A stretch of DNA of 64,000 nt, taken from Candidatus Eiseniibacteriota bacterium. Lineage in GTDB: Bacteria > Eisenbacteria > RBG-16-71-46 > SZUA-252. Within the stretch, counting starts at the first letter, position 1; the number at the start of each line of letters is the position of its first letter. The stretch is from positions 1,582 through 65,581 of the forward strand of contig JBBTHR010000019.1 of assembly GCA_038060295.1 (NCBI GenBank), written 5' to 3'. Shown here piece by piece: positions 10,913-53,184 of the stretch. Both the position numbers and the translations under genes were made by a program. The notes under the pieces were generated by a model. The model saw only the letters and a program-made list of their open reading frames with translations, made no database searches and was not told where the DNA came from.

Positions 10913-10923
10913 GGTCGGCACGA

Positions 10924-23253: not shown

Positions 23254-24387
23254 ATGGACGTCGGAATCCTGAAGGAGACTTACGCGGGAGAGACCCGCGT
23301 CGCCCTCATCCCGTTCGCCGTGGGGGAACTCGTCCGGCAGGGGAACCGGGTCGTCATCGAAACGGAAGCGGGGGTTGGGTCGGGCTTTCTCGACCAGGCG
23401 TACCGCGACGCGGGCGCGACCATCGTCTACTCGGCCGAGGAGGTGATCGGCCGGTCGCGTCTCGTGCTCAAGGTCATTCCACCCTCGTGGGAGGAGTGCC
23501 GGAAACTCGACGAGGGGCAGATCCTCTTCTCGTTCCTCCAGCTCTCGAACGCGCCGAAGGGGCTGGTGACGCTTCTCCTGGACCGCCAGATCACCGCCAT
23601 GGGCTTCGAGGCGATCGAGGAACAGCGCGGCGAGAGGCCGGTCCTCACGGCCATGAGCGAGATCGCGGGAAAGCTTGTCATCCCGATCGCGGCGCACCTC
23701 CTTCAGGCGAGGCAGGGGGGGCGCGGAATCCTGCTCGACGGCATTCCCGGAGTTCCGCCCGGCGTCGTCGTAGTACTGGGGGCGGGGATGGTCGGGGCGA
23801 CGGCGGCGCGCCGCGCGGCGGCGATCGGGGCGCAGGTCATCGTCCTCGACCAGAACGTCGACCGCCTGCGTAGCGTGATCGACCGCGTGGGCGGTTCGAT
23901 CGTGACGGCCGTGGCGACTCCCTACAACGTCGAACGCTTCGTGCCGGTCGCCGATGTCCTCATCGGGGCCGTCTTCATGGAGCTGGAGGCGACCCCTCAC
24001 GTCATCGATGAGGCGCTGATCCGGAAGATGCGCCCCCGCTCGGTTTTCATCGACGTCTCGATCGATCAGGGTGGCTGCTCGACCACGTCGCGTCCGACCA
24101 CCATCGTCGAGCCGACCTACATCAAGCAGGGGATCACGCACTTCTGCGTGCCGAACATTCCGGCGCTCGTTCCGCGCACGGCCACGGTGGCGCTCTCGAA
24201 CATCCTCCTCCCGTATCTGGGTGAGTTGACTCGTCAGGGACCGGAAGCGATTCTCCGGTCGAACCCGGCTCTCGCGCGCGGCGTCTACACCCACGGCGGA
24301 TTCTGTCTCAAGAGGAAGATCGCCTCGGCGCTCGATCTCCCGTACCGGGGCGTCGAGAGCGAATGGAGCTACGATGTCGCCCGATAA
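23254..24387 (+). CDS. Alanine dehydrogenase/PNT-family NAD(P)-dependent dehydrogenase
   Basis: The N-terminus (MDVGILKETYAGETRVALIPFAV) matches the AlaDH N-terminal pattern. A Rossmann motif (VVVLGAGMVGATAA) is present. The start is 1 bp after the maeB stop. Confidence 0.7.
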   Translation: MDVGILKETYAGETRVALIPFAVGELVRQGNRVVIETEAGVGSGFLDQAYRDAGATIVYSAEEVIGRSRLVLKVIPPSWEECRKLDEGQILFSFLQLSNAPKGLVTLLLDRQITAMGFEAIEEQRGERPVLTAMSEIAGKLVIPIAAHLLQARQGGRGILLDGIPGVPPGVVVVLGAGMVGATAARRAAAIGAQVIVLDQNVDRLRSVIDRVGGSIVTAVATPYNVERFVPVADVLIGAVFMELEATPHVIDEALIRKMRPRSVFIDVSIDQGGCSTTSRPTTIVEPTYIKQGITHFCVPNIPALVPRTATVALSNILLPYLGELTRQGPEAILRSNPALARGVYTHGGFCLKRKIASALDLPYRGVESEWSYDVAR

Positions 24388-25714
24388 CGCCGCCACGCTG
24401 TCGGCGGTCACGAACCGCCGCTCCGCGCAAGCCGCGTTCCACGAGAAGCTCGTGACGGCCGAGGTGGCGCTCCAGACGGTCTGCTCCGGCGACACGGTCT
24501 ACGTGCACCCCGGCTGCGCGGCGCCGCTGCGGCTTCTCGACGCGCTCGTGGCGCGTCGAGAGGAGTTGGAGAACGTCCGGATCGTCCATATCATGTCGCT
24601 CGGTCGCGCCGAGTACGTGAAGCCGGGGATGGAGAAGCACTTCCGGCACATGGCCCTCTTCATCGGGAGGAACGTTCGCGACGCGGTGAACGAGGGGCGC
24701 GCCGACTACGTCCCGGTCTTCCTCTCGGAGATTCCGCGTCTCTTCACCAGCCGGACCATTCCGGTCGACGTGGCCCTCATCCACGTCTCCCCGCCCGACG
24801 AGCACGGCTTCTGCAGTTTCGGCGTGGGCGTCGAGTGCACGAAGGCCGCCGCTTCCACGGCGAACGTGGTCGTCGCGCAGGTGAATCCCCATATGCCGCG
24901 CGTCCTGGGGGACAGCTTCATCCACGTGCGGAACGTCACCTACTTCGTGGAGGCCGACGAGCCGCTGGTGGAACTCCCGCGGGTGCGGATGTCGCCGGCG
25001 TTCGACGAGATCGGGCGGAACGTGGCGGGGCTGGTGGAGGACGGGGCGACGCTTCAGCTCGGGATCGGCGGAATTCCGGACGCGGTGCTCCACCATCTCC
25101 GCGACCGCAAGCACCTGGGCGTCCACACCGAGATGTTCTCGGACGGCATGGTGGAACTGGTGGAGGCGGGAATCGTCACCAACGAGCGGAAGACGCTCCA
25201 TCCCGGGAAGATCGTCTCCTCCTTCGTCCTCGGGTCGAAGCGGCTCTTCGACTTCATCCACAACAATCCGATCGTGGAGTTCCATCCCAGCGACTACGTG
25301 AACGATCCCTTCGTGATCGCCATGAACGACAAGATGGTGGCGGTCAATTCCGCCATCCAGGTCGATCTGACCGGGCAGATCTGCTCCGATTCCATCGGCG
25401 ATACCGTCTATTCCGGGTTCGGCGGGCAGGTCGACTTCGTCCGCGGCGCCTCCCGGGCAAAGGGCGGCAAGGCGGTCATCGCGCTCCTCTCGACCGCCAA
25501 ATCAGAGGGGATCTCGCGGATCGTGCCCTATCTGGACGAGGGGGCCGGCGTGGTCACGTCCCGAGCCGACGTCCACTTCGTGGCCACCGAGTACGGCGTG
25601 GCCGACCTGCATGGGCGATCGATGCGGGAGCGCGCGCGCGCACTCATCGGCATCGCGCACCCGAAGTTCCGCGAGGAGCTGGAAGCGGGAGCGCGGAAAC
25701 GAAAGCTCGTCTAG
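24374..25714 (+). CDS. Acetyl-CoA hydrolase/transferase family protein (4-hydroxybutyrate or succinyl-CoA:acetate CoA-transferase-like)
   Basis: The family pattern is present (GDTVYVHPGCAAP...FIGRNVRDAVNEGRADYVPVFLSEIPRLF...SGFGGQVDFVRGA). It overlaps the previous gene by 14 bp. Confidence 0.75.
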   Translation: MSPDNAATLSAVTNRRSAQAAFHEKLVTAEVALQTVCSGDTVYVHPGCAAPLRLLDALVARREELENVRIVHIMSLGRAEYVKPGMEKHFRHMALFIGRNVRDAVNEGRADYVPVFLSEIPRLFTSRTIPVDVALIHVSPPDEHGFCSFGVGVECTKAAASTANVVVAQVNPHMPRVLGDSFIHVRNVTYFVEADEPLVELPRVRMSPAFDEIGRNVAGLVEDGATLQLGIGGIPDAVLHHLRDRKHLGVHTEMFSDGMVELVEAGIVTNERKTLHPGKIVSSFVLGSKRLFDFIHNNPIVEFHPSDYVNDPFVIAMNDKMVAVNSAIQVDLTGQICSDSIGDTVYSGFGGQVDFVRGASRAKGGKAVIALLSTAKSEGISRIVPYLDEGAGVVTSRADVHFVATEYGVADLHGRSMRERARALIGIAHPKFREELEAGARKRKLV

Positions 25715-25793
25715 GGCCGTGCCGGCCAGCCTCGACGGGTTGTCGCATCGGCCGGTTGCGGGCAGGGCGCGCCTCCCCTAGACTCCGGGCTCC

Positions 25794-26981
25794 ATGCTCA
25801 AGACCACCCCCTTCCATCCTCGTACTTCGGCCCTGGTGCGCGCGCAGACGTGGCGCCGGTGGGCGGGGTATCAGATGGCCAGCGCCTACGATCCGCACCC
25901 CGATCGCGAATACGCCGCGATCCGCAGTGCGGCGGCGCTGATCGACGTCTCGCCCCTCTACAAGTATCGAATCGCCGGGCGCGACGCGATGCGGCTTCTC
26001 GATCGAACGATCACGCGTGACATGACGAAGCTGAAGCCCGGTCAGGTCTACTACACCCCCTGGTGCGACGCGGACGGGAAGGTGGTCGACGACGGCACGG
26101 TCACCCGCCTCGACGAGGGATCCTACCGGCTCACCAGCGCCGATTCGTCCCTTCGCTGGCTCCACCTGAACGCCGCGGGAATGGACGTCCGGGTCGACGA
26201 CATCTCGGAGCGCGTCGGCGCCGTCTCGCTCCAGGGTCCCTTGTCGCGCGCCATCCTGGCGACCGTCTCTCCCCTCGATCTGCGGTCGCTCCCGTACTTC
26301 CGCTATGCCGAGACGACGATTCGCGACATTCCCGTCGGCCTCTCGCGCACCGGATACACCGGAGACCTCGGCTACGAGATCTGGGTCGACGCGGAGCGCG
26401 CCGTGCCTCTCTGGGACGCGCTCATGGAGGCGGGGAAGCCATTCGGGCTCACGCCCGCCGGCGTCTGGGCGCTCGACATCGCACGAATCGAGGCCGGGCT
26501 CATCATGATGGACGTCGACTACTACTCCTCGCACCACGCGCTCATCGAGCAACGAAAATCGTCGCCCTACGAGATCAACCTCGGGTGGGCCGTGAGCGCC
26601 GGCAAGGGGCCCTTCAACGGGCGCCGCGCCCTGGCGGCGGAACGGACCCGCGGCGCCGCGTGGGGCTTTGTCGGCCTCGAGATCGAGTGGGAGTCGTTCG
26701 AGCGGCTCTTCGCGGCGCACGGCCTGCCACCTCAGATTTCCAACGTGGCCTGGCGCGCGAGCGCGCCGATCTACGATGCCGGGCGTCAGATCGGCTACGC
26801 CACAAGCGGCTGCTGGTCTCCGCTCCTCAAGAAGTTGCTCGCGCTGGCTCACCTGCGCGCCCCCTACTTCACGCCCGGCACGCGCGTCGAGCTGGAGATC
26901 ACGGTCGAACACCAGCGCCGACGGGCCAACGCCGTCGTGCGAAAGCTCCCCTTCTTCGATCCCGAGAGGAAGAAGGCGTGA
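25794..26981 (+). CDS. GcvT-family aminomethyltransferase (folate-binding glycine-cleavage T-protein fold)
   Basis: IDVSPLYKYRIAGRDAMRLLDRTITRDMTKLKPGQVYYTPWCDADGKVVDDGTV is the GcvT/DmdA-type N-terminal pattern. A C-terminal barrel domain follows. Confidence 0.75.
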   Translation: MLKTTPFHPRTSALVRAQTWRRWAGYQMASAYDPHPDREYAAIRSAAALIDVSPLYKYRIAGRDAMRLLDRTITRDMTKLKPGQVYYTPWCDADGKVVDDGTVTRLDEGSYRLTSADSSLRWLHLNAAGMDVRVDDISERVGAVSLQGPLSRAILATVSPLDLRSLPYFRYAETTIRDIPVGLSRTGYTGDLGYEIWVDAERAVPLWDALMEAGKPFGLTPAGVWALDIARIEAGLIMMDVDYYSSHHALIEQRKSSPYEINLGWAVSAGKGPFNGRRALAAERTRGAAWGFVGLEIEWESFERLFAAHGLPPQISNVAWRASAPIYDAGRQIGYATSGCWSPLLKKLLALAHLRAPYFTPGTRVELEITVEHQRRRANAVVRKLPFFDPERKKA

Positions 26982-28558
26982 CCCCGCGCTACGACGCGAT
27001 CGTCGTCGGGGGAGGCCACAACGGGCTCGTGGCCGCGGCGTATCTGGCGCGCGCGGGGCGGAGGACTCTCGTTCTCGAGCGACGCCACGTCCTCGGCGGC
27101 GCGGCGGTGACCGAGGAGATCTTTCCGGGCTTCAAGTTCACGGTCTTCTCCTACGTGGTGAGCCTCCTTCGCCCCGAGATCATCCGCGATCTCGAGCTGC
27201 CGCGACACGGGCTCCAGATCCTTCCGCTCGAGAGCACCGTCACGCCGCTCGACAACGGCGACTATCTGGCGGGGTGGGCCGACCCCGACGAGACGCGGCG
27301 CGAACTCTGCCGCCACTCGCCCCGCGACGCCGACGCCGCGGTCGTCTTCGGGCGCTTGATGCATCACATGGCGATGGCGGTGAAGCCGATCCTCGGCATG
27401 GTGCCGCCCGACCCGACCTCGCTCTCTCCCGGGGATCTTGCGGGGCTTCTGAAGCTCGGCGGCCATTTCCGCTCGCTCGGCCCGGAGCGCTTCCACGCGC
27501 TCCACAAGCTGATGACCATGAGCAGCGCAGACTATCTCGACGAGTGGTTCGAGTTCGGCCCCCTGAAGGCGACCAAATCGGCCAGTGGCATCATCGGGAC
27601 GTTTCTGGGCCCGCGGTCCCCTGGTACCGCCTACGTGCTTCTTCATCACTACATGGGGGAACTTGACGGCGCGTTTCGCGCCTGGGGCTTCCAGAAGGGC
27701 GGAACGGGCGGCATCAGCGAGTCGATCGCCGGCGCGGCACGCGCGCACGGCGTGACGATTCGCACCAGCGCGGCGGTCGAGCGCGTGCTCGTGCGAAACG
27801 GCCAAGCCACGGGCGTCGTTCTGGAGGGCGGTGAGGAAATTCCCGCGAAGATCGTCGTCTCGGGGCTCGACCCGCGGCTCACCTTCACGCGTCTCGTGGA
27901 GCCGAAGGATCTCCCCGATTCGCTCGTCGAGGCCGTGAGGCGGTTCAAGTTCCGCGGCTCGTCGGGGAAGGTGAATCTGGCGCTGGCGGGGCTGCCGAAC
28001 TTCACCTGTATCCCCGGCGAGGGGCCCCATCTTCGCGGGGCGGTCTCCATCAGCCCCAGCGTCGAGTACCTCGAGCGCGCCTACGACGACGCCAAGTATG
28101 GCGAGTTCTCCCGCCATCCCTACATGGACATCGTCATCCCTTCGATGATCGATCCGAGCATGGCGCCTCCCGGGAAGCACGTGATGAGCGTCTTCGTCCA
28201 GTACGCCCCCTACAACTTGAATGGCGGCTGGACGGACGCGAAGCGCGAGGCGTTCGGTGACACGGTGGTCGACACGATCGCTCGATACGCGCCCAATTTG
28301 AAGTCGCTCATTCTCCATCGGCAGGTTCTCACGCCGCTCGACATGGAGCGGATAACAGGCCTTTCCGAGGGAAACATCTTTCAGGGCGAACTCGCCCTGC
28401 AGCAGCTCTTCTTCCTGCGGCCGGCGCCGCGATGGGCCAAGTACCGCACGCCGATTCGAGGCTACTGGCAGTGCGGCGCGGGCACCCATCCGGGCGGTGG
28501 GATCATGGGCGCCTCGGGGCGCCTCGCGGCGATGGAGATCTTGAGGTCGACGCCGTGA
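26978..28558 (+). CDS. NAD(P)/FAD-dependent oxidoreductase, phytoene-desaturase/amine-oxidase (CrtI-like) family, paralog 1
   Basis: GTG start (GTGA overlap with the gcvT-like stop). The dinucleotide motif YDAIVVGGGHNGLVAAAYLARAG is present. The protein is about 526 aa. Its first 305 codons in the track ORF 26063-28558 are out-of-frame read-through. Confidence 0.7.
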   Translation: MTPRYDAIVVGGGHNGLVAAAYLARAGRRTLVLERRHVLGGAAVTEEIFPGFKFTVFSYVVSLLRPEIIRDLELPRHGLQILPLESTVTPLDNGDYLAGWADPDETRRELCRHSPRDADAAVVFGRLMHHMAMAVKPILGMVPPDPTSLSPGDLAGLLKLGGHFRSLGPERFHALHKLMTMSSADYLDEWFEFGPLKATKSASGIIGTFLGPRSPGTAYVLLHHYMGELDGAFRAWGFQKGGTGGISESIAGAARAHGVTIRTSAAVERVLVRNGQATGVVLEGGEEIPAKIVVSGLDPRLTFTRLVEPKDLPDSLVEAVRRFKFRGSSGKVNLALAGLPNFTCIPGEGPHLRGAVSISPSVEYLERAYDDAKYGEFSRHPYMDIVIPSMIDPSMAPPGKHVMSVFVQYAPYNLNGGWTDAKREAFGDTVVDTIARYAPNLKSLILHRQVLTPLDMERITGLSEGNIFQGELALQQLFFLRPAPRWAKYRTPIRGYWQCGAGTHPGGGIMGASGRLAAMEILRSTP

Positions 28559-30180
28559 GCGCCCCGGGGAACGGCGGCGCCCGCGGCGCGGCCTTCGACG
28601 CCGTCGTCATCGGCGCGGGCGCGAACGGGCTGGTCGCGGCGGCGCGGCTGGCCAAGGTGGGACTCCGCGTCCTTCTCCTCGAGCGGGCGGAGTCGCTCGG
28701 CGGCCAGGGCGCCGTCATCGAATTCGCGCCCGGCTTCCGCGCGGCGCCCCTGGGGCAGGATCCGGGCTGGGTTCCTCCGGCCGTCGTCCGCGGCCTCGGC
28801 CTCGAGTCTCTCGCGGCCGACCCGGCGGACGCTCCGCTCAGCGTGGCGATCGGCCCCGGCTCGTTCCTGACTCTCTCGCGCGACGCGGAGCGTGCGGCGG
28901 AGGCGATTCGCGTGCATTCCGTCTCCGACGCGGCGAAGTGGCCGGCGTTCACGAGCCAGGTACACCGTCTTGCGGGCTTTCTGGGCGAGCTCTATCGGAC
29001 GCCCGCGCCCGATGTCGGTCTGACGTCGCTCGGCGACGTTCCCGCGCTGCTCGGCCTCGGGCTCAAGTACCGCGCCCTCGGCGGCGAGGGAATGATCGAG
29101 TTCCTTCGCACGCTCCCGCTCTCGGTATGGGAGCTGCTGGACGACTGGTTCGAGTCCGCGCCGCTCAAGGCGGCCGTGGCGACCGGGGGAATCCAGGATT
29201 ACCGCCAGGGCCCGCGCTCGGGCGGGACGGGGTTCGTCCTCCTCCACCATCTCGTGGGCGCTCCCGTGGGGTCGATGCGCGGGCGGCTCCCGTGGCGCGG
29301 CGGTCCCAGCGCGTTCACCGAGGCGCTCGAGCAGGTGGCGCGCCGCGCCGGCGTCACGATTCGGACCGGCGCCGCCGTCGCGCGGGTCACGGTCCGCGAC
29401 GATGCCGCGGAGGGCGTGATCCTCGCCAACGGGGAGGAGATCGCGACCCGTGCGGTCCTTTCCACGGCCGATCCGACCCGGACTCTCCTCGAGTGGGTCG
29501 ATCCAGTCTGGCTCGATCCCGAGTTCATGCACGCGGTGGGGAATATCCGCTATCGCGGCTGCACGGCAGTCGTGATGTTCGCCCTCGACGCGATTCCCGA
29601 GTTCCCGGGGCTTGCCTCGCAAGAGGCCCTGGCGGGACTTGTCTCGCTCACGCCGAGCGTCGTGGCCCTGGAGAAGGCGGCGGACGCCGCGAAGTACGGC
29701 GATGTCTCCGAGAACCCTCATGTCGAAATCACGGTCCCGACGCTGCGTTCGCCGGCGCTCGCCGACGGCGGCAGGCACGTCCTGGTCGCTCGTGTGCACT
29801 ACGCGCCCTACCGGCTCCGCGACGGCGCCGCGTGGGATCCCGCGCGGCGTGACGCGTTGGCCGATCGGGTGACGGAGGCGATCGAAGCGGTATCGCCCGG
29901 GTTCGGCGCGCGCGTACTGCACCGGGTCGCGATGTCGCCCCAGGACCTAGAAGAACGCTACGGACTTCGCGAGGGTGCGCCCACGCAGGGGGAATTGGGC
30001 CTCGACCAGATCCTCTTCATGCGCCCCGTCGCGGGCTGGGGCCGCCACGCCACGCCGATCGCGGGACTTTATCTCGGTGGCGTCGGGACGCATCCCGGGC
30101 CCGGAATCCTCGGCGGCGCCGGATGGCTGGCAGCGAATCGCCTCCTCGGAGATCGCCGCGGCGGGAAGGGGCGCGCGTGA
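28555..30180 (+). CDS. NAD(P)/FAD-dependent oxidoreductase, CrtI-like family, paralog 2 (tandem duplicate)
   Basis: GTG start overlapping the upstream stop (GTGA). FDAVVIGAGANGLVAAARLAKVG is present. The protein is colinear with paralog 1 throughout. Confidence 0.7.
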   Translation: MSAPGNGGARGAAFDAVVIGAGANGLVAAARLAKVGLRVLLLERAESLGGQGAVIEFAPGFRAAPLGQDPGWVPPAVVRGLGLESLAADPADAPLSVAIGPGSFLTLSRDAERAAEAIRVHSVSDAAKWPAFTSQVHRLAGFLGELYRTPAPDVGLTSLGDVPALLGLGLKYRALGGEGMIEFLRTLPLSVWELLDDWFESAPLKAAVATGGIQDYRQGPRSGGTGFVLLHHLVGAPVGSMRGRLPWRGGPSAFTEALEQVARRAGVTIRTGAAVARVTVRDDAAEGVILANGEEIATRAVLSTADPTRTLLEWVDPVWLDPEFMHAVGNIRYRGCTAVVMFALDAIPEFPGLASQEALAGLVSLTPSVVALEKAADAAKYGDVSENPHVEITVPTLRSPALADGGRHVLVARVHYAPYRLRDGAAWDPARRDALADRVTEAIEAVSPGFGARVLHRVAMSPQDLEERYGLREGAPTQGELGLDQILFMRPVAGWGRHATPIAGLYLGGVGTHPGPGILGGAGWLAANRLLGDRRGGKGRA

Positions 30181-31301
30181 GCGACTTTCGCGCCACCACG
30201 ACGAGCTACCGGCAGGGCGCGCGAACGCTCCCCCGCGAGTACTACACCTCCGACGCGATTTTCGGCGAGGAGCGCGAGAGGATCTTCGCGACCGGCTGGA
30301 ACTGCGCCGGACGGGCGTCGCGGCTGCGAGAGCCGGGCGACTTCTTCCTCCGGGAGATCGCGGGCGAATCGATCCTCGTCGTACGCGACAAGAGCGGGGG
30401 CGCGCGCGCCTACTTCAACATCTGCCGCCACCGCGGCACGCGTATCTGCCGCGAGGCGTCGGGCCGCTTTCACGATTCGATCCAGTGCGCCTATCACGCG
30501 TGGACGTACTCGCTCGATGGAAGGCTTGTCGGAGCCCCGCACATGAAGGAGGCCGGCGATTTCGACATGAAGGCGTATCCGCTTCACGAGGCCGCCATCG
30601 CGGAGTGGGAGGGATTCCTGTTCGTGAACGTGGCAGAAATCCCCACGCCGTTCGAAGCGGCATGGGAGCCGCTCCAGGGCCGTTTCGCGAGATTCGGCCT
30701 CCGCGGGCTCGCGATGGGGCACCACGTCGTCTATGACGTGAAGGCGAACTGGAAACTCGTCTTCCAGAACTATTCCGAGTGTCTCCACTGCCCGACGATT
30801 CATCCGAAACTGGCGACCGTCCTTCCGTACCTGAGCGGGGCGAACGATCTTACGGAGGGCCCGTTCCTCGGCGGTTACATGGGGATCAAAGCGCCGAATG
30901 AGAGCGCCACCATGAGCGGGCGTGCGTGCGGGCGTCCGGTGAGCGACGACATTCCCGAGGAGGATCGGAAGCGCGCCTTCTACTACTCCATCATGCCGAA
31001 CATGCTCCTGAGCATTCACGCCGATTACGTGAACTACTACATCCTCCGTCCCGTCGCGGTCGATCGCACGGAGGTCGAGTCGGAGTGGCTCTTCCACCCC
31101 GATACGCTCGCCGATCCCGGCAACAACATTCGCGACGCGATCGAGTTCTGGGACCTCACCAATCGGCAGGATTGGGACATCGTGGGGCAGAGCCAGCTCG
31201 GCGTCGCCTCGCGGCGCTACGCTCCCGGACCCTATTCGCCTCGAGAGAGCGTCCCCGCGGCGTGGGATCGGGAGTATCGGGGGTGGATGGGAAAGGGCTG
31301 A
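30177..31301 (+). CDS. Rieske [2Fe-2S] non-heme iron oxygenase, alpha-subunit-only type
   Basis: The Rieske motif CRHRG...CAYHAW and the mononuclear-iron motif N-x2-E-x2-H-x4-H (NYSECLHCPTIH) are present. The GTG start overlaps the upstream stop (GTGA). Confidence 0.75.
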   Translation: MSDFRATTTSYRQGARTLPREYYTSDAIFGEERERIFATGWNCAGRASRLREPGDFFLREIAGESILVVRDKSGGARAYFNICRHRGTRICREASGRFHDSIQCAYHAWTYSLDGRLVGAPHMKEAGDFDMKAYPLHEAAIAEWEGFLFVNVAEIPTPFEAAWEPLQGRFARFGLRGLAMGHHVVYDVKANWKLVFQNYSECLHCPTIHPKLATVLPYLSGANDLTEGPFLGGYMGIKAPNESATMSGRACGRPVSDDIPEEDRKRAFYYSIMPNMLLSIHADYVNYYILRPVAVDRTEVESEWLFHPDTLADPGNNIRDAIEFWDLTNRQDWDIVGQSQLGVASRRYAPGPYSPRESVPAAWDREYRGWMGKG

Positions 31302-31316
31302 TTCGGTTCGATCGCG

Positions 31317-32411
31317 CTATTCGGCCAAGGCCATCGGGGATGCCGCAGGGGCGGGGAACCAGTGCCGGGTCCGGTTACAGAAGGCGCAGACCGTGAGCAT
31401 GACCGGCACCTCCACGAGCACGCCGACGACGGTGGCGAGCGCGGCGCCGGAGTCGGGGCCGAAGAGCGTGATCGCCACCGCGACCGCCAGCTCGAAGAAG
31501 TTGCTCGCCCCGATGAGCGCTCCCGGCGCGGCCACGTTGTGCGGGATGCGGAACCACTTCATCAGCCCGTAGGCGAGGCCGGCGTTGAAGTAGACCTGGA
31601 TCAGGATCGGAACCGCGATCAGGAGAACGTGGAACCAGCGGCCGGTGATGTTGTCGGCCTGGAAGGCGAAGATCAGGACGAGCGTCGCGAGGAGCGCGAT
31701 CGTCGTGATCGGCTGAAAGAAGGGGAGGTAGACGCGCTCGAACCAGTCGCGCCCCTTCGTCCGAAGAAGCAGGACCCGGCTCAGGCTCCCGAGGGCGAGG
31801 GGGATGACGATGAACACCACGACGCTTGTGAGGAGCACCTGGAACGGCACCGTCAGGCTGCTCGCTCCCGCCACCAAGAGCCCGACGATCGGCGCGAAGA
31901 GCACCAGCATGATCAGGTCGTTGAGCGAGACCTGGACCAACGTGTAGGCCGGATCGCCGTCCGTGAGATACGACCAGACGAAGACCATCGCCGTGCACGG
32001 GGCCGCGGCGAGGATGATGGTTCCCGCGATGTATTGGTCGGCGAGTTCCGGGCCGATGAGCGGCAGGAAGAGGTGCTTGAAGAAGACCCATCCCAGGAGC
32101 GCCATCGAGAACGGCTTAACCAGCCAGTTGACGAAGAGCGTCACGAGGATTCCGCCCGGGCGTCGCCGGACGCCGAGAATGCTCGCGAAGTCGATCTTGA
32201 GCATCATGGGGTAGATCATCAGCCAGATGAGGAGCGCGATCGGCGCGTTGATCCGGCTCTTCTCGCCGAACTCCATCGCGCGTAGCGCGCCGACGGCGCC
32301 CGGCGCCAGCTTGCCGAGGAGCACGCCGGCCACCATGCAGAGCGCCACCCAGAGAGTCAGGTAGTTCTCGAAGAAGTTGAGGCGCTTCGCCGGCTTTGGC
32401 GAATCGGTCAT
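31317..32411 (-). CDS. acr3: Arsenite efflux transporter, ACR3 family
   Basis: MTDSPKPAKRLNFFENYLTLWVALCMVAGVLLG and a 10-TM profile typical of ACR3/ArsB(ACR3). Confidence 0.85.
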   Translation of the reverse strand: MTDSPKPAKRLNFFENYLTLWVALCMVAGVLLGKLAPGAVGALRAMEFGEKSRINAPIALLIWLMIYPMMLKIDFASILGVRRRPGGILVTLFVNWLVKPFSMALLGWVFFKHLFLPLIGPELADQYIAGTIILAAAPCTAMVFVWSYLTDGDPAYTLVQVSLNDLIMLVLFAPIVGLLVAGASSLTVPFQVLLTSVVVFIVIPLALGSLSRVLLLRTKGRDWFERVYLPFFQPITTIALLATLVLIFAFQADNITGRWFHVLLIAVPILIQVYFNAGLAYGLMKWFRIPHNVAAPGALIGASNFFELAVAVAITLFGPDSGAALATVVGVLVEVPVMLTVCAFCNRTRHWFPAPAASPMALAE

Positions 32412-32415
32412 CGCC

Positions 32416-32838
32416 TTACTCCGCCTTCTCGGCAGCGCGCGCGGCCGTCCCGATCAGCTTGTGGACCAGCCCCTCGATTCGATCCCGCACCGCGCGGAAT
32501 CCGTCGTCGTCCAGGTGCTTCGGGTCGGGGATGTCCCAATCGAGCCGGTGCCGCGCCGGGAGGTGGGGACAGGCGTCGCCGCAGCCCATGGTGACCACGT
32601 AGTCCCATCGCACGGCCGGCAAGTCGTCGAACCCCTTGGAGCGCTGGAGATTCAGATCGACGCCTTTCTCGGCCATGAATTCCGTCGCGCGGGGGTTCAC
32701 ATGCCCCGACGGGCGCGATCCCGCGCTATGGGCAATGACGCGATCGTGCCCCTGCGCGCGCGCGAAGCCTTCGGCCATCTGCGAACGGCAGGAGTTCTCG
32801 ACGCAGACGAAGAGAAGGGAGGGGGTCGCTTCAGACAC
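32416..32838 (-). CDS. arsC: Arsenate reductase, LMW-PTP/thioredoxin-coupled type
   Basis: The CVENSCRSQMAEG P-loop (CX5R) and the downstream Cys pair (GCGDACP) are present. Confidence 0.85.
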   Translation of the reverse strand: MSEATPSLLFVCVENSCRSQMAEGFARAQGHDRVIAHSAGSRPSGHVNPRATEFMAEKGVDLNLQRSKGFDDLPAVRWDYVVTMGCGDACPHLPARHRLDWDIPDPKHLDDDGFRAVRDRIEGLVHKLIGTAARAAEKAE

Positions 32839-33256
32839 GCGGGCGCTCCTTCCGGCGCGGGCGGTTCCGGTTCGGCGTGGTCATGGCCATCGCGCGGGCC
32901 GGCGTGGCCGCGCAAAGCTCCATGAGGGGAATGGCCTTGATCTCGCGGAGCCGCTTGCGGTCGGCGGCCACGGCCGGATCCCGGTCGAGCGGGCCGTGGA
33001 GCATCGCCAGGACGCGGTTTGCGTACGGGTTCCGGCCCTCGGTGGCGAGGGCGTACTCGATCCACTTTCCGTCTCGTTGGTCCGCGACGAGCCCGGCCGC
33101 CTTGAGGATCGCGAGATGCTTGGAAACGGTCGAGGGTGCGAGGCCGAGGACGGCCTGCACCTGGCAGACGCAGAGTCCGCCGCCCTCGAGAACTTTCAGG
33201 ATGCGCGTCCGCGTCGGATCGCCCGCGGCTTTCAGCGCCAGTTCGAAGTCACGCAT
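32831..33256 (-). CDS. arsR: ArsR/SmtB family metalloregulator
   Basis: Start assigned at MRDFELALKAAGDPTRTRILKVL. The wHTH domain and the As(III)-binding CVC motif (LCVCQVQAVLG) are present. Confidence 0.8.
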   Translation of the reverse strand: MRDFELALKAAGDPTRTRILKVLEGGGLCVCQVQAVLGLAPSTVSKHLAILKAAGLVADQRDGKWIEYALATEGRNPYANRVLAMLHGPLDRDPAVAADRKRLREIKAIPLMELCAATPARAMAMTTPNRNRPRRKERPRV

Positions 33257-33274
33257 GGAGGTTCCTTTCGTCAA

Positions 33275-33290
33275 TTCGTCACATGACGAA
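33275..33290. promoter_or_regulatory. 7-2-7 inverted repeat TTCGTCA-CA-TGACGAA; candidate ArsR operator
   Basis: Direct read. It lies 19 bp upstream of the arsR ATG, in the divergent arsR / M23-peptidase intergenic region. Confidence 0.3.
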
Positions 33291-33345
33291 GTGTACCGGT
33301 CGGGGCCGGAGCCGTCAACCGCGAGCCTGTGCTACAGTCCGGCAG

Positions 33346-35418
33346 ATGGTGCGATCGCGACAGACCTTCGTCACGTTCTTGACCGCGGTCGGGTCTCTCC
33401 TCGCGAGTTGTGTCCTTCCGCCGAGCGGCTCCGCGGGCTCGCCGGCGGAGCCGCGCCCCGCGTCGCCCGGCAGTAGCGTCGTCCGGCCGTCCCCCTTCGA
33501 GACACGACTGCACCGGTCTCCCCTCGGCACTTCCCTGATCGTCAATGGAGGATTCGGCGAGTACCGTGGCGGGCACTTCCACGCGGGGCTCGACCTCGGC
33601 ACCGGCCGCCGCACCGGGCGCCGGGTCCTCGCGCCGGAGAGCGGCTGGATCGAACGCGTGCGAAGCTCGGGCGTCGGCTACGGCCGCGCCCTGTATCTCC
33701 GTACTCGGGACGACCGCACCCTCGAGTTCGGCCATCTCGACGCGTTCGCCGGGCCGCTTGCCGCCTTCGTAGAGCACGCGCAGGACTCGACCGCCCACTA
33801 CGAGCAGGACCTAGGGCCGCCCCGGGGGCGTTTCCCGGTGCGCGCGGGGGACGTCATCGCCTGGTCCGGAGAGAGCGGGGCGGGAGGGCCGCACTTACAT
33901 TTCGAAATCCGACGAGGCGACGTGGCCTACAACCCGGTCCGCGCGGGACTCTCCCTCCCCGATCGAGTTCCGCCCACGCTCCTCGAACTCACACTTGAGC
34001 CGCTCGACAACGTCTCTCAGGTCGAGGGTCGTTACGGGCCCTACACGCTGGATCTCGCCCGCACGGATACCGTGAGTGCGATGGGGCGGATGCGAGCCAT
34101 TGTCAGGGCGCGCGACCAGACCTCACGCGGCGGAGCGCGTACGGTGCCCTGGAGCGTCGGCATGGAATGGAACGGCCGCCGCACGGAATGCCGGTTCGAC
34201 AGCGTCTCGTGGGCCAGCGACATGCCCGAGGCCGACTACGTCTACGATGCCGGCCGCGTCACCGGTAGGAAGGGACTCGTGCTCTGGGCCGCCGCCGGGT
34301 TTCGCCCTCGCGTCCTGCGTGCCGACGCGCCGATCGGCGAGGAGGCGGGAACGGTTGAGATCCGGCTGGGAGATCCGCCGCGTGCGCTCCTCGTTTGGGC
34401 ACGAGATCTGGGAGGCCGCGTGGTCAAGCGGCGCGTTGTCGTCCGCCCGGGAAAGCTTCCACCGCAGGCGAATCCCGGATGGTGGCGCGGCGAGGAGCCG
34501 TGGGACAGCACCGCGGCCGGATTCGCTTCGTTTCCGGGAGGGTTCCTTCGGATCGGTGTGCCGGTTCAGACGGCGAAGAACGGACTCGAGCTTCAGCTAG
34601 GCGACGAGGCGCGGCGCGCGACTCGGAGCGACGGCGTCTGGTCCGCGACCTTCGCGGTATCCCAGGAAGCCCGCGCCCGGACGATGCGCCTGCCGATCGC
34701 TCTCCGCGCCCAGGATCCCGCCGCGGCCGCGGTGGGGCGCGGCGGCTTCGTATGGGCGAGGCACGCCTCCGCCGCGGACTCGTTCGAACTCGCGGACGAG
34801 TCGGGTGAAGTGCGAGTAGGACTCGCCTCCGGAGCTCTCTTCGAAGATGCGACCCTGCTGGCCTTCGCCCTTACAGTGAGCGCGCCGACCGGCCTTGTTT
34901 CGGTGGGTCGCGCCTGGCAAGTGGAGCCAGGGACACTCCCGCTTCGCCGCGCCGCTAGGATCGCGATCGCGGCGCCCGCCGGCGCTCCCATCGACCGGAT
35001 TGGCCTCTACCGACTCGATGCCGGCAAGTGGCAGTGGATCGGCGCGCGGCTCGACCCGGAGACGCGCGCGGTGAGGGGCGATTCGCGGCGGTTGGGGGGC
35101 TTCGCCCTCTTCCGGGACGAAGTCGGGCCGCGAATCACGCTCCTGCAGCCGGCCGCCGCGTCGGTGAAGAACCGTCCGTACAGCCGCTGGTCCGTCGAGG
35201 CGACGGTGGCCGAAGAAGGAAGCGGCATCGATGCGGTGAACTCGTACTTCGAGCTCGACGGTGGGCGCGTTCCGACCGAGTGGGATCCCGATGTGGATCG
35301 CCTCCGTTGGCGGCCCCTCGAGCCCCCGGCGCCGGGGACGCACGCCGTCGTCATGGTCGCCGCGGACCGCGCCGGGAACACGACCCGCGCGACGGGCACA
35401 TTTCGGATGGGGCCATGA
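33346..35418 (+). CDS. M23-family metallopeptidase lipoprotein with a large C-terminal beta-rich extension
   Basis: Start assigned at MVRSRQTF with a lipobox (LLASC). The M23 motifs HFHAGLDLG and GGPHLHFEI are present. Confidence 0.7.
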   Translation: MVRSRQTFVTFLTAVGSLLASCVLPPSGSAGSPAEPRPASPGSSVVRPSPFETRLHRSPLGTSLIVNGGFGEYRGGHFHAGLDLGTGRRTGRRVLAPESGWIERVRSSGVGYGRALYLRTRDDRTLEFGHLDAFAGPLAAFVEHAQDSTAHYEQDLGPPRGRFPVRAGDVIAWSGESGAGGPHLHFEIRRGDVAYNPVRAGLSLPDRVPPTLLELTLEPLDNVSQVEGRYGPYTLDLARTDTVSAMGRMRAIVRARDQTSRGGARTVPWSVGMEWNGRRTECRFDSVSWASDMPEADYVYDAGRVTGRKGLVLWAAAGFRPRVLRADAPIGEEAGTVEIRLGDPPRALLVWARDLGGRVVKRRVVVRPGKLPPQANPGWWRGEEPWDSTAAGFASFPGGFLRIGVPVQTAKNGLELQLGDEARRATRSDGVWSATFAVSQEARARTMRLPIALRAQDPAAAAVGRGGFVWARHASAADSFELADESGEVRVGLASGALFEDATLLAFALTVSAPTGLVSVGRAWQVEPGTLPLRRAARIAIAAPAGAPIDRIGLYRLDAGKWQWIGARLDPETRAVRGDSRRLGGFALFRDEVGPRITLLQPAAASVKNRPYSRWSVEATVAEEGSGIDAVNSYFELDGGRVPTEWDPDVDRLRWRPLEPPAPGTHAVVMVAADRAGNTTRATGTFRMGP

Positions 35419-35532
35419 AAGCGAAAACGCTGGCCGGCTACAAGATCACCCGCTGACATCCAGGGTAGTTCGCGGCTAAAGTCGTCGTTCATGCCGAACA
35501 TCGTCGGATCCGCTCGCTGACTGGAGGATTTC

Positions 35533-38130: not shown

Positions 38131-40731
38131 TCAGGCCGTTCTCGAAGTCGCAGTTTGCCCGATTGCCTGGACAAGTCGATCGGTCGCAGCAATGACTCGG
38201 TCGAGCGCCACTGTGGCCGCATCGAGGCGGCCTTCCTCGGCCAGGGCTTCGAGAGCCGCCGCCGCCGCCGACAATTCACGTCCACCGATCGCTGCGGCGC
38301 TTCCCTTGAGTGCGTGGGCAGTGAAACGGAGACCATCACCATCTCCGGTGCTTAGGGCCGCACGCAATGCGGAGATCCTCTTTGGAAGATCGGTGCTAAA
38401 GTCACGAAGGAGTTCGTCCACGAAGCTACGGTCTTGCCCGACGAGATCCGCGAGGGCGTCGAGCTGCAGCACATCTTCGACTTGTCCAGTAGGGTGGATT
38501 GCAGCACCGCGTCCAACCGCAGTGTGCCCGCCCCAGATCCGAAGCACCTCCAGGAGCTGGCGCGCGTCCACGGGCTTCGAGACATAGTCGTCCATGCCGG
38601 CGGCAAGACAACGCTCCCGGTCTCCCTGCAACGCCCGGGCGGTCATCGCGATGATCGGCGTGTGGCGATCGGTATTCTCTTCATGCCGCCGAATGGCCTG
38701 GGTCGCGTGGAGACCGTCCATCTCTGGCATCTCGACGTCCATCAGCACCAGATCGTACGGCGCCAACGCCAGCGCATGAATCGCTTCCGCTCCGTTCGCC
38801 ACGGCCTCGGCACGGCAGCCCCACCGCTCGAGAATACGCAGGGCCAGCTTTCGATTGACGACGTGGTCCTCGGCAACCAGCACGCGCAGTCCGAGGGACG
38901 CTGCCGGGGTGGCGCCGGGGATGGTCTGCGCCACCTCCGCTGGGGATGAGCCCTTCGGTCTCACCGCCGTCACGACAATCTTCGACAACTGTGAGCGGTG
39001 GACTGGTTTCATCAGTATCGCGGTGAAGAGTGCGGCATCCGCTTCCGCCAGCCGTCCGATTCGCACGGAAGAGAGCAGTACGATCGGGATCGTGGCGAAC
39101 CTGGGGACACTGCGGATCGCCCGCGCGGTTTCGAGGCCATTCATTCCCGGCATGTGCATGTCGAGCAGAACGAGTCCGAAAGGATCTTCCTCCTGGGCCG
39201 AACCCAGGCACTGCAGGGCCAGGACACCATCCTCGGCCTGCTCCGTGCGACAGCCCGAAGCCCGCAGCTGGTCGGCCAGCACACGTCGATTCGTGGTGTT
39301 GTCGTCCACCACGAGAACTCGCACGGGACCGATGGGAATCGACTCGTCGATCGACGTTTCGATCGGGCTGGTCGAGCGCGAAAACGGAATCTCGACCCAG
39401 AACGTGCTGCCACGGCCGGGCTCGCTTTCGACCCCGATCCGGCCTCCCATCATCTCGGCGAGCCGCCCGCTGACCGTGAGCCCGAGCCCGGTGCCACCAT
39501 ACCGGCGCGTCGTCCCGGCCTCGGCCTGGGTGAAGCTCTCGAAGATCGCCTCGTGCCTGTCCTTGGGAATCCCGATGCCGGTGTCGCGCACGAGGAGGCG
39601 CAGCAACGCCACCGCATCACGCTCCGACACCAGCTCCACCTCGATGGCCACCTCGCCGAGAGAGGTGAACTTGATGGCGTTGCCCGCGAGATTGACGAGG
39701 ATCTGCCGCAATCGGCCCGCGTCGCCCCGGAGGCGTTCAGGCACATGTTGTGGCACCACGCACACGAGTTCCAGGCTCTTCTCCTGCGCCTGGCTGCTGA
39801 GCAGGTCCGCCACCTCCTCGTACAGCGCGCGCAAATCGAAGTCTTCGTTTTCGATGGTCATCTTGCCCGCTTCGAGCTTCGAGTAGTCCAGGATCTCGTT
39901 GATGATGCCGAGCAAGGCATCGGCGCTGCCACGGATCGTGGTGACGTAGTCGAGCTGCTCCGGGGAGAGCGGCGTGTCGAGGAGAAGGCCGGTCATGCCC
40001 ACCACGCCGTTCATCGGCGTGCGGATCTCGTGGCTCATGCTGGCGAGGAACTCCGCCTTCGCCAGCAGGGCACGGTCCGCAGCATCCTTCGCCGCGGCCA
40101 ATTCGATCGCCTGCCGCTGGAGACGCTCTGCGTGCTGGTCAGCCTGTAAGCGGGCCTCGTTCGCTTCCGCCAGGGCCTGAGAAAGCTTCTCACGGGCCTT
40201 CCTACGCTCGGTGACGTCGCGCAGGATGGCGAATGCGGTCCAACCCTGATTGGAACCGAATGTCCCCATCGTCAGGTCCGTGGTGAATAGGGATCCGTCC
40301 CGTCGCACCGAGGGCACTTCGTCGATCGCGCGCGGGAACCTCCCTTGAGGATCGCGCATGTCCAACGTGAAGATCTGGCGGTGCCGGTCGCGCTCGGACG
40401 CGGCGATGAGTGTGTCGAAGGGACGGCCGACGATCTCGTGTTCCTCCCAGCCGAAGAGGTGGGTGGCTGCGGGGTTGAAGGAGCCAATCAGGCCGTCCGC
40501 TCGTGCCGTGACGATGGCGTCCGGCGAGGCGTGGACCAGCGCGCGTGCACGGGCCGATTCCCGGAGCGCGAGCGATCGGATCGGGCGCAGTACGATGAGC
40601 CACAGCACGGGAGCCAGCACGCTACCGAGGATGAGCGCGTCCAGGAGGGAGCACAGCCACTCGGGCAGCGAGGGGGCGACGTGGCCCATGACCGCCATGA
40701 TGAGGAGTTCCGTGGCGACGATGGTTCCCAT
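38131..40731 (-). CDS. Hybrid sensor histidine kinase with the domain order TM-PAS-HisKA-HATPase-REC-REC-Hpt
   Basis: The motifs are SHEIRTPMNGV, GTGLGLTVS, two D-boxes (LLDMHMPGMNG and LMDVEMPEMDG) and a C-terminal Hpt (FTAHALKGSAAAIG). The start is placed at MGTIVATELL because the Arg-rich 44 aa upstream look non-coding. Confidence 0.75.
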   Translation of the reverse strand: MGTIVATELLIMAVMGHVAPSLPEWLCSLLDALILGSVLAPVLWLIVLRPIRSLALRESARARALVHASPDAIVTARADGLIGSFNPAATHLFGWEEHEIVGRPFDTLIAASERDRHRQIFTLDMRDPQGRFPRAIDEVPSVRRDGSLFTTDLTMGTFGSNQGWTAFAILRDVTERRKAREKLSQALAEANEARLQADQHAERLQRQAIELAAAKDAADRALLAKAEFLASMSHEIRTPMNGVVGMTGLLLDTPLSPEQLDYVTTIRGSADALLGIINEILDYSKLEAGKMTIENEDFDLRALYEEVADLLSSQAQEKSLELVCVVPQHVPERLRGDAGRLRQILVNLAGNAIKFTSLGEVAIEVELVSERDAVALLRLLVRDTGIGIPKDRHEAIFESFTQAEAGTTRRYGGTGLGLTVSGRLAEMMGGRIGVESEPGRGSTFWVEIPFSRSTSPIETSIDESIPIGPVRVLVVDDNTTNRRVLADQLRASGCRTEQAEDGVLALQCLGSAQEEDPFGLVLLDMHMPGMNGLETARAIRSVPRFATIPIVLLSSVRIGRLAEADAALFTAILMKPVHRSQLSKIVVTAVRPKGSSPAEVAQTIPGATPAASLGLRVLVAEDHVVNRKLALRILERWGCRAEAVANGAEAIHALALAPYDLVLMDVEMPEMDGLHATQAIRRHEENTDRHTPIIAMTARALQGDRERCLAAGMDDYVSKPVDARQLLEVLRIWGGHTAVGRGAAIHPTGQVEDVLQLDALADLVGQDRSFVDELLRDFSTDLPKRISALRAALSTGDGDGLRFTAHALKGSAAAIGGRELSAAAAALEALAEEGRLDAATVALDRVIAATDRLVQAIGQTATSRTA

Positions 40732-41010
40732 CGCGACGAAGAACGATCGCTTGGCGGACAGGAAGCGGCCAGGTTGACGCACTCGGACTCTCCTCCATCG
40801 CTGAGGGACCCGGGTGACGTACTGGCCCCGTCCGCGCGGGCGGCGGGAGGACAGCAAGCGCAACCCATGAGCCGGTTCAATACTTCCTGTCAGGTTCGGC
40901 GCGCGGGGGCGTGTTCTTTAGAGGCATTGTCGGCGACCTCGCGCGGCAGAACGCGGAGGCGAAGCCGATTCGCTGCCGGTGGCGCTGGAGGTAGCCGCCC
41001 CGCGCCCGCG

Positions 41011-41781
41011 CTAACGGGGCGAGACGGTAAGGCTAAGGACCCAGCCGGGCTTGGTCGCTTCCGCGTCCCGGAAGTCCCGATTCTCCCAAGACCAGAGCCG
41101 AGTGAGGGAAGGCTGCAGCGCAAACCGCCCCCACGCGGCCGTCACGCCTACGCCGGTCTCGAGGCCGGATATCCCCGTCATCTGGTAGTAGTGCTCATGG
41201 ACGTAAAGTTTCGATGTGAGCCCCAAGGAGGCCTTGGAGCCGGACAATTCGTGACCCAAGCCGAACGCCCAGTAGCGTCCGCGTCCCTGGTCGACGTCCC
41301 AGTGGACGCTCACCGAGGGCTGGAGCGGCGCGTCGAGGGAGAGGTCAGCGAATACTTCCTGCGATGACTTCCAATCGGGGCGGTTCGGATAGTCCAGGTA
41401 CACGTAGCCGAGGGCTCCGGAGAGCGGCCCGCGCCCCCAATCCCTCTGGACCGTTCCGTCCACTTCGTTCAGCTCGCCACGCGTCTGGTCGAGATTCCCC
41501 CACACGCTCAGCGAGAAGCGATTCAGCCCGCACGTCACCTGAGGCTGGAGCACGGGTCGGCCCTCACTGTAGTCGAGTCCCTGGAACGAGTACCTGGATG
41601 CATAGGTCGCGCTCCATTCGATCCGCGGCCCGGGCTGGGGCGAATCGGCGTCGCGGGGCGTATCCGCGGGGTAGGCGGATCCGGTGCCGTCCTCAAGGCG
41701 GTAGGGCGCGGCCTCCGCCGCGGCGGTCCCGCACAGGATTGTGACGGTGACCAGGAAACGGGCGATCGCGTGCGGGTTCAT
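41011..41781 (-). CDS. Putative outer-membrane beta-barrel protein, secreted
   Basis: A signal peptide (MNPHAIARFLVTVTILCGTAAAEA) and alternating amphipathic strands rich in Tyr, Trp and Gly. The ATG overlaps the TGA of the upstream kinase (ATGA). Confidence 0.45.
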   Translation of the reverse strand: MNPHAIARFLVTVTILCGTAAAEAAPYRLEDGTGSAYPADTPRDADSPQPGPRIEWSATYASRYSFQGLDYSEGRPVLQPQVTCGLNRFSLSVWGNLDQTRGELNEVDGTVQRDWGRGPLSGALGYVYLDYPNRPDWKSSQEVFADLSLDAPLQPSVSVHWDVDQGRGRYWAFGLGHELSGSKASLGLTSKLYVHEHYYQMTGISGLETGVGVTAAWGRFALQPSLTRLWSWENRDFRDAEATKPGWVLSLTVSPR

Positions 41782-43589: not shown

Positions 43590-43593
43590 CGGG

Positions 43594-52438: not shown

Positions 52439-52525
52439 CGATCGCCTCCCGACTCCCGATCCCACGATTGGCACCCGGCGGCCGGTGCAAGCCGGATCGC
52501 CGGCCCAGCCGCCATCTGAACCATC

Positions 52526-53183: not shown

Positions 53184-53184
53184 G

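Follow-up and report, generated by a model that had tools for sequence, protein, structure and literature searches.

What do four tightly joined genes, encoding a GcvT-like protein, two flavoproteins and a Rieske oxygenase, do for the bacterium that carries them? The question is raised by a 64,000-nucleotide stretch of a Candidatus Eiseniibacteriota genome (assembly GCA_038060295.1, contig JBBTHR010000019.1, positions 1,582 to 65,581; the whole of this stretch is called the window, and coordinates are given within it), in which the genes, here named G1 to G4, occupy positions 25794-31301. A preliminary description, made from the DNA sequence, had suggested an N-demethylation pathway in which the GcvT-like protein captures one-carbon (C1) units, the Rieske enzyme acts on a quaternary amine and the flavoproteins act on the lower amines. 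The family assignments and gene linkage reported here support that general idea, and the four genes probably constitute a self-contained, tetrahydrofolate (THF)-linked module for oxidative N-demethylation. Three details of the earlier suggestion gave way, namely that the flavoproteins are split enzymes, that they are of the CrtI family and that the four genes form one fixed unit. The preliminary description also remarked that this gene combination fits no nameable pathway. Searches of the full-text literature found no published account of the gene set.

Four coupled genes and the families of their products

Gene structure was derived from the frame profile of guanine-plus-cytosine (GC) content at third codon positions together with the list of open reading frames (ORFs), in a window of approximately 68% GC. 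All four genes lie on the forward strand: G1 at 25794-26981 (395 amino acids), G2 at 26978-28558 (526 amino acids), G3 at 28555-30180 (541 amino acids) and G4 at 30177-31301 (374 amino acids). The GTGA start/stop overlaps claimed for them were read directly from the sequence at all three junctions (G1/G2, 26978-26981; G2/G3, 28555-28558; G3/G4, 30177-30180), the downstream GTG start sharing bases with the upstream TGA stop in each case, and purine-rich Shine-Dalgarno-like runs lie 6-14 nucleotides upstream of the G2, G3 and G4 starts. Four-base gene overlaps are common in operons and are weak evidence alone; the gene order and the overlaps repeat in the related contigs L001 and L002. The domain content also proved to be as described, with Pfam giving GCV_T and GCV_T_C for G1, Amino_oxidase/NAD_binding_8 for both G2 and G3, and Rieske and Ring_hydroxyl_A for G4. 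A spacer of 79 nucleotides (25715-25793, forward strand), from the stop codon of an acetyl-CoA hydrolase/transferase gene to the ATG of G1, is presumed to be the promoter or 5' untranslated region of the module. Scanning of positions 25400-31600 gave no sigma-70-like promoter and no terminator-like site, and no Rfam match, riboswitch or regulatory RNA was found upstream of G1.

Judged by its sequence, G1 is a stand-alone GcvT-fold protein that is predicted to bind THF. It matches PF01571 (GCV_T) with 218 bits across profile positions 10-255 of 255, and PF08669 (GCV_T_C, the C-terminal barrel) with 49.5 bits. Among NCBIfam models it scores best against the C-terminal half of trimethylamine N-oxide demethylase (Tdm; 273 bits, positions 386-760 of 763), followed by the GcvT models, both below cutoff (NF001567, 214 bits, cutoff 300; TIGR00528, 154.5 bits, cutoff 235.85), then by SoxA and DmdA, with LigM (56 bits) and DesA (49 bits) as weak matches. 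At 395 amino acids G1 is too short to be a Tdm, a two-domain protein of approximately 760 amino acids, and the N-terminal catalytic half is missing. The closest solved structures are Tdm (9q5a, E 1.8e-49), GcvT (1yx2 and 1woo) and DMGO (1pj5), and the G1 motifs DGKVVDDGT and SRTGYTGDLGYEI line up with the folate-site motifs of these three proteins, as do the DD and GYTG(E/D)xGxE motifs of the GcvT-fold family. G1 thus has the full GCV_T domain, the barrel and the motifs of the GcvT-fold folate-binding superfamily. The preliminary description had named one outcome that would count against it, that G1 is a YgfZ-type protein of iron-sulfur repair; this identity was rejected, the YgfZ model giving 15.7 bits (cutoff 219, E 0.005) against 273 bits for the C-terminal half of Tdm and 214 bits for GcvT. 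No GcvH or GcvP domain was present among the window genes scanned.

The two flavoproteins are paralogs, 39% identical over 524 residues, and each is a full-length flavin adenine dinucleotide (FAD) protein of approximately 530 amino acids; G3 has FAD-binding motifs of its own, GAGANG at the N-terminus and THPGPG at the C-terminus. The idea that they are the halves of a split amine oxidase was therefore abandoned, as both paralogs are complete. Their earlier CrtI-family label describes the broad fold correctly and is otherwise imprecise. The best curated hidden Markov model (HMM) for both is CrtO, a beta-carotene ketolase, with full-length alignments, and the bit scores of G2 (CrtO 296, crtI_fam 106, CrtD 69) and G3 (183, 94 and 68, respectively) fall below the cutoffs of 1000, 238 and 580; no model of NCBIfam release 20 claims either protein. 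A HMMER search with G2 matched 2,955 clusters (50% identity) at E ≤1e-30, and eukaryotic proteins with N-terminal extensions fall within this family. Full-length comparison of G2 with five eukaryotic PYROXD2-like sequences gives identities of 42-46%. Two of the five bear the name PYROXD2 in a cluster look-up, those of oyster (46% identity, G2 residues 4-522 aligning with 42-578, E 1.5e-136) and mayfly (43% identity). G2 is hence nearer to animal PYROXD2 (46%) than to its own neighbour G3 (39%). On these comparisons G2 and G3 are assigned to the PYROXD2 family, G3 as a divergent member. A true CrtI, CrtD or CrtO identity was ruled out by the scores below cutoff and by the lack of crt genes, none of which were found in the window or in approximately 170 related loci, including the recurrent neighbour families of 82 loci. 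Clustering of the flavoproteins with CrtI/CrtD beside crt genes, the other outcome that the preliminary description had set against itself, was accordingly not encountered.

An AlphaFold2 model of G2 (predicted local distance difference test 80, predicted template modelling (TM) score 0.84) was searched against the PDB. The top folds were CrtD-like 4rep (TM 0.75), 3ka7 and CrtI (4dgk), followed by NicA2, 6-hydroxynicotine oxidase, putrescine oxidase and monoamine oxidase (MAO), all at ≤18% identity. The fold expected for these proteins was thus confirmed, but the search did not separate amine oxidase from desaturase: the G2 fold lies between carotenoid desaturases and amine oxidases, and the chemistry is therefore not decided by fold.

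Relatives of G2 are 53-83% identical to it across phyla in the genome scan described below, and 86-92% identical in many soil contigs. In a distance tree the G2-type (A-type) proteins form one tight clade, and the G3-type (B-type) proteins are divergent and paraphyletic; by neighbour joining the eukaryotic clade is placed with bacterial subfamilies of single-copy genes and not within the A-type clade, the internal branches being very short. About 15 positions that are invariant in A-type proteins, and that match the consensus of the five eukaryotic PYROXD2-like sequences (where most of them are also invariant), hold other residues in B-type proteins. Numbered as in G2, they are S58, Y59, S62, L63, R65, I206, H224, G227, W236, F303, F406, Y409, N466, I467 and F468. 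Several sit in low-confidence loops of the G2 model (227-237 and 464-482), which are plausibly active-site loops. We propose that the A-type protein may be a conserved catalytic subunit with an active site in common with PYROXD2, and that the B-type protein would be either its partner or the enzyme of a second step. Among the best 120 listed clusters (90% identity) of G2 relatives, identity to G2 was 86-100%, mostly in soil metagenomes, and the co-encoded B-type protein falls to 68-94% identity over the same depth.

G4, by its sequence features, is an alpha-only Rieske non-haem-iron oxygenase resembling GbcA, Stc2 and CntA. Its best NCBIfam match is GbcA (198 bits, below the equivalog cutoff of 670), and its closest solved structures are 3n0q, the demethylase entries 3vca and 4qup, and CntA (6y8j), with E values of 1e-40 to 1e-45; by these comparisons GbcA, Stc2 and CntA are its nearest relatives. 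The motifs CRHRG...CAYHAW and ECLHCPTIHP align with those of Stc2 and CntA, and the ligands of the Rieske cluster and the mononuclear iron are intact. The CxH...CxxH Rieske motif and the ExxHxxxxH iron motif are both present, and no beta-subunit gene for G4 was found in the window. No Rieske reductase or ferredoxin, including the GbcB type, was detected by Pfam among most large window ORFs or by a regular expression for the 2Fe-2S motif in all loci.

Conservation of the core and its neighbours

Conservation was assessed by scanning one genome per GTDB species with a profile of G2 relatives, which returned 80 loci at 53-83% identity; loci were chosen by G2 similarity alone, and the 68 with enough flanking sequence were counted. 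By the titles of their records, the 80 loci come from Gemmatimonadota, Acidobacteriota, Chloroflexota, Dormibacterota, Actinomycetota and Planctomycetota, and also from Zixibacteria, Neomarinimicrobiota, Oligoflexales, Bacteroidota and Gammaproteobacteria; Eisenbacteria and Latescibacteria loci extend the range. At least 12 phyla are represented among the 68 loci, and the core as a whole recurs in more than a dozen. A GcvT-like gene lay within 8 kb of the G2-type gene in 65/68 loci, a B-type gene followed the A-type gene by less than 700 bp in 63/68, and the full trio of GcvT, A and B was present in 58/68, with some lineages carrying A and GcvT only (L073, L077, L078, L082 and L086). Rieske genes were counted where each flank had 6 kb or more of sequence (54 loci): 7 had a G4-type gene (≥40% identity), 10 had only a distant Rieske gene and 37 had none. 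These counts indicate that the conserved unit is GcvT plus A plus B, with the Rieske gene as a lineage-specific add-on. Of the four-gene unit originally proposed, the GcvT gene and the two flavoprotein genes therefore stand, and the Rieske gene belongs to it in some lineages only.

The reciprocal test, with G4 as the query against metagenome contigs, gave 80 loci, G4's own clade being 67-88% identical. A flavoprotein gene lay directly upstream of the G4-type Rieske gene in 53/59 loci with enough upstream sequence, and in four more it lay 0.6-1.4 kb away, three of these four having an insertion of an unrelated gene in between, for MgtE twice and for an AAA_28 protein once. The order 1-2-3-4 was kept without exception in the 80 loci. 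This linkage of G4 to the flavoproteins, with its constant order, is far beyond chance. For every distant Rieske gene tested beside the trio in other lineages GbcA was the best NCBIfam match, which indicates that several independent GbcA-like lineages have been recruited beside the core. A 3.9-kb contig labelled as a Methanobacteriota archaeon (L071, 778-3484) carries a G4-like Rieske gene (42%) directly before an A-type gene (58%); its archaeal assignment reflects either horizontal transfer or a binning error.

When the neighbouring ORFs of the loci were clustered and the recurrent families annotated, an APC-family amino-acid permease was found at 19 loci, PurU (formyl-THF deformylase) at 9, a PuuC/betaine-aldehyde-dehydrogenase-like aldehyde dehydrogenase at 9, and PotD/F-type ABC systems and class III aminotransferases at several. 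The usual layout in Terriglobia is a permease, a divergent GcvT gene and then A-B-PurU; Pyrinomonadaceae loci have, after the flavoprotein pair, a Beta_elim_lyase-family aldolase dependent on pyridoxal phosphate (PLP), with a weak threonine-aldolase match. A Steroidobacteraceae locus places a carnitine-3-dehydrogenase-like gene (559 bits, cutoff 592) beside the flavoprotein and GcvT genes, and Shinella sumterensis has one PYROXD2-like gene and gcvT in a single operon with crotonobetainyl-CoA-hydratase-like, CoA-ligase, carnitine-dehydrogenase-like and BKACE genes. Cultured alphaproteobacteria such as Rhizobium sp. SL42 and Parasedimentitalea marina have the trio under a regulator of the TetR family, and genes for an ABC transporter, an aminotransferase and Rieske alpha subunits lie close by. 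Shinella zoogloeoides and Ensifer adhaerens are further cultured carriers. Taken together, the recurrent neighbours are consistent with a pathway that imports an amine, disposes of C1 units and goes on to use a primary amine as its product.

Several individual loci have further features. On plasmid pW43C of P. marina (L084, 1-25587) the trio is surrounded by three GbcA-like Rieske genes and a gene for a 679-amino-acid OYE/Fe-S flavoenzyme, together with BKACE, histone-deacetylase-family and GNAT genes and two ABC transporters, in what appears as a methylated-amine 'island'. A conserved protein of approximately 498 amino acids, matching nothing in Pfam or NCBIfam, is encoded after A-B-PurU in nine Terriglobia loci (L013, L018, L027, L030, L032-L034, L043 and L045), and a class I S-adenosylmethionine-dependent methyltransferase (7 loci) and a peptidase S58 (DmpA-like) gene (5 loci) occur near the Terriglobia permease. 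On pSymA of Sinorhizobium meliloti 1021 (L168, 1202046-1223230) a G1 homolog at 10001-11185, 40% identical, is followed by MTHFR-like, PurU-like, class V aminotransferase, 2-hydroxyacid dehydrogenase and SHMT genes, and then by an AraC regulator and a VanA_C oxygenase, with no PYROXD2-like genes; the cluster appears to serve another kind of THF-dependent demethylation, or a serine cycle.

In the window itself, a malic enzyme/PTA fusion, an alanine-dehydrogenase-family gene and the acetyl-CoA hydrolase/transferase gene (24374-25714) lie upstream of the module on the same strand, and no transporter, regulator, folD, purU or glyA gene stands next to it. An ArsR-ArsC-ACR3 arsenic resistance operon (31317-33274, reverse strand) converges on the module, the ACR3 stop being 15 nucleotides from the G4 stop with no terminator-like structure between them. 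At 33300-35500 there is no convincing gene call, only several short reverse-strand ORFs without a family match, and a 760-amino-acid forward-strand ORF at 33136-35418 has a weak codon-position GC signal. Farther away, the window encodes a cbb3-type cytochrome oxidase cluster (27-7597), in which one ORF joins COX1 (CcoN) and FixO domains and which continues with FixP, a FixG-like 4Fe-4S protein and a P-type ATPase; four histidine kinases or hybrid sensor kinases on both strands (38131-47187), with PAS, CHASE4, Hpt and receiver domains; a molybdenum cofactor/molybdoenzyme cluster (51473-58557) with MoaA, XdhC and a 1049-amino-acid xanthine-dehydrogenase-family protein with fused 2Fe-2S domains; and an M32 carboxypeptidase.

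A proposed demethylation route weighed against its rivals

In DMGO, SoxA, DMGDH and Tdm, the GcvT-fold partner of an amine-oxidising enzyme puts the C1 unit derived from an N-methyl group on THF, and GbcA, Stc2 and CntA are alpha-only Rieske enzymes that act on quaternary amines. Beyond the gene structure, protein families and core conservation described above, we infer how the module may work in its chemistry, the association of its proteins, its electron acceptor and its substrate. G4 would hydroxylate a methyl group of a quaternary (trimethylammonio) amine, so that formaldehyde is released and a tertiary amine is left. The flavoproteins would then act on the N-methyl C-N bonds, first in the tertiary and next in the secondary amine, oxidising them to iminium ions, with G2 acting as the conserved catalytic A subunit and G3, the divergent B paralog, as its partner subunit or as the enzyme of the second step. 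G1, with THF bound, would trap each C1 unit as 5,10-methylene-THF in place of free formaldehyde. As to the substrate, we tentatively favour the series glycine betaine, dimethylglycine, sarcosine and glycine, a choice that may well prove wrong; carnitine catabolism ends in glycine betaine, and it is because carnitine-dehydrogenase-like genes stand beside flavoprotein and GcvT genes in some loci that this series is the leading guess. N-epsilon-methylated lysines and other omega-N-methylated amines or polyamines are the alternative candidates.

A number of observations weigh against a demethylation module. The functional links rest, for every member, on gene neighbourhood, and each match to a curated HMM is below its cutoff. 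The closest solved folds of G2 are carotenoid desaturases (4rep and 4dgk), and the modelled fold would look alike for C-C and C-N oxidation. Neither the window nor the related loci encode a reductase or ferredoxin for the Rieske enzyme, and none of the transporter, regulator, folD, purU and glyA genes sought adjoins the module in the window. The G1 homolog of S. meliloti pSymA (40%) stands in another context without flavoproteins, and the PYROXD2-family genes of Sphingobium and Mesorhizobium have no GcvT neighbour, which indicates that the PYROXD2 family is functionally mixed.

Four other explanations were considered. The flavoproteins could cleave a non-methyl C-N bond in the style of a polyamine or amino-acid oxidase, with G1 handling a glycine-derived aminomethyl unit, so that the genes would form an alternative glycine or sarcosine cleavage route and not a stepwise demethylation. 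Putrescine oxidase and MAO are indeed among the structural neighbours of G2, PotD/F transporters, aminotransferases and aldehyde dehydrogenases recur nearby, and the Pyrinomonadaceae loci have their PLP-dependent aldolase of the Beta_elim_lyase family after the pair. We nevertheless consider this route unlikely: neither gcvH nor gcvP was found in the window or recognised in the families that recur around the related loci, the GbcA-like Rieske association points to methylated amines, and, to our knowledge, the characterised GcvT-fold partners of amine oxidoreductases all capture C1 units derived from N-methyl groups. It is also conceivable that G2 and G3 serve G4 as its electron source, electrons from the tertiary and secondary amine passing to the Rieske cluster with no separate NAD(P)H reductase, so that the downstream demethylations pay for the first monooxygenation. 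Translational coupling of G4 to G3, its attachment to the flavoprotein pair in 53/59 loci and the lack of a gene for a PDR/FNR-type reductase or plant-type ferredoxin in the window or related loci would all suit such an arrangement, and the count would balance, with two 2-electron oxidations set against one 2-electron requirement. The 37/54 loci that have the flavoprotein pair without a Rieske gene tell against it, because there the flavoproteins must have another acceptor; Rieske reductases are, besides, often encoded elsewhere in the genome, and we know of no precedent for direct flavin-to-Rieske transfer without an iron-sulfur carrier. We regard it as quite improbable.

The weak matches of G1 to LigM and DesA (56 and 49 bits) and the generic ring-hydroxylating alpha-subunit domain of G4 raise the possibility of a module for methoxylated aromatics, in which G1 would be a THF-dependent O-demethylase of the LigM/DesA type, G4 would be ring-hydroxylating or VanA-like and the flavoproteins would be auxiliary; the PurU neighbours would fit THF-dependent O-demethylation too. 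This is very unlikely, as the scores of G1 against the C-terminal half of Tdm and against GcvT are five times that against LigM, the nearest relatives of G4 are amine demethylases and not VanA or ring dioxygenases, and the genes nearby encode transporters of amino acids and polyamines, aminotransferases and carnitine-dehydrogenase-like proteins rather than enzymes of aromatic ring cleavage. Hardly credible is a role of G2 and G3 as carotenoid or isoprenoid desaturases or ketolases (CrtO/CrtI-like), their adjacency to G1 and G4 being meaningless. It is true that CrtO is the best curated HMM for both proteins over their full length (296 and 183 bits) and that the nearest solved folds are CrtD-like 4rep and CrtI 4dgk, but these scores do not come near the cutoffs (1000 for CrtO, 238 for crtI_fam), no locus has crt genes, the GcvT linkage in 65/68 loci across phyla would be left unexplained, and G2 matches PYROXD2 with 472 bits, well above its 296 bits for the CrtO model.

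Relation to known demethylation systems and to animal PYROXD2

The proposed N-demethylation module resembles DMGO, DMGDH/SARDH and SoxBDAG in that a flavoprotein would oxidise an N-methyl C-N bond and a GcvT-fold module would yield 5,10-methylene-THF. The folate domains of DMGO and SoxA align with G1, and PurU is a neighbour of the module as it is in sox operons. These systems differ in using a flavoprotein of the DAO/sarcosine-oxidase family with the GcvT module fused to it or placed in the alpha subunit, whereas here there are two paralogous PYROXD2/CrtI-like flavoproteins and a free-standing GcvT protein. By analogy, the module may thus work like DMGO or sarcosine oxidase through a different flavoprotein lineage. 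Tdm shares with G1 its C-terminal THF-binding half, the best G1 match in both NCBIfam and the PDB, and differs in the N-terminal catalytic half, which G1 does not have, the match being restricted to positions 386-760 of 763. GbcAB, Stc2 and CntAB are like G4 in being alpha-only Rieske systems with the same Rieske and iron-binding motifs, and they include its closest relatives; the GbcA model is longer (420 positions, against 374 amino acids in G4) and is matched by G4 with 198 bits against a cutoff of 670, and, unlike GbcAB and CntAB, G4 has no adjacent reductase of the GbcB/CntB type and stands in an operon with flavoproteins. With CrtI, CrtD and CrtO, the G2 and G3 proteins have in common the broad fold and the Pfam Amino_oxidase superfamily; they differ by scores below the cutoffs, by identities of ≤18% to solved structures and by linkage to C1 and amine genes, not to carotenoid genes.

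Animal PYROXD2 resembles G2 over its full length and shares the approximately 15 signature residues that are missing from the B-type paralog; it differs in having no known GcvT partner, and in the distance tree, where internal branches are short, the eukaryotic proteins are placed apart from the A-type clade of bacteria. In humans, the metabolite signals reported for PYROXD2 variants in genome-wide association studies include trimethylamine, dimethylamine and N2-acetyl-N6,N6-dimethyllysine (PMC13352909, PMC5310055, PMC3169529), and a severe infantile metabolic disorder has been described with biallelic variants of the gene (PMC8777681). In the literature to July 2026 PYROXD2 is described only as a mitochondrial protein, with no reaction assigned. 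It is possible, although we would put the likelihood somewhat under even, that PYROXD2-family flavoproteins, perhaps including the human enzyme, are N-methyl-amine dehydrogenases, working in bacteria as an A/B pair with a free GcvT-fold protein that passes the C1 unit to THF. If this is true, the family would add a third flavoprotein lineage, not recognised before, to those that carry out the task of dimethylglycine or sarcosine dehydrogenase, and it would explain the effects of human PYROXD2 variants on trimethylamine, dimethylamine and methyl-lysine levels.

For the bacteria, the module may provide a candidate route for betaines, carnitine products and methyl-lysines in Acidobacteriota, Gemmatimonadota, Chloroflexota and related groups, and because it is very abundant in soil metagenomes it may be a major unrecognised route from methylated amines to folate-bound C1 units. 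For the PYROXD2 family as a whole, the conserved core gives a function that can be tested.

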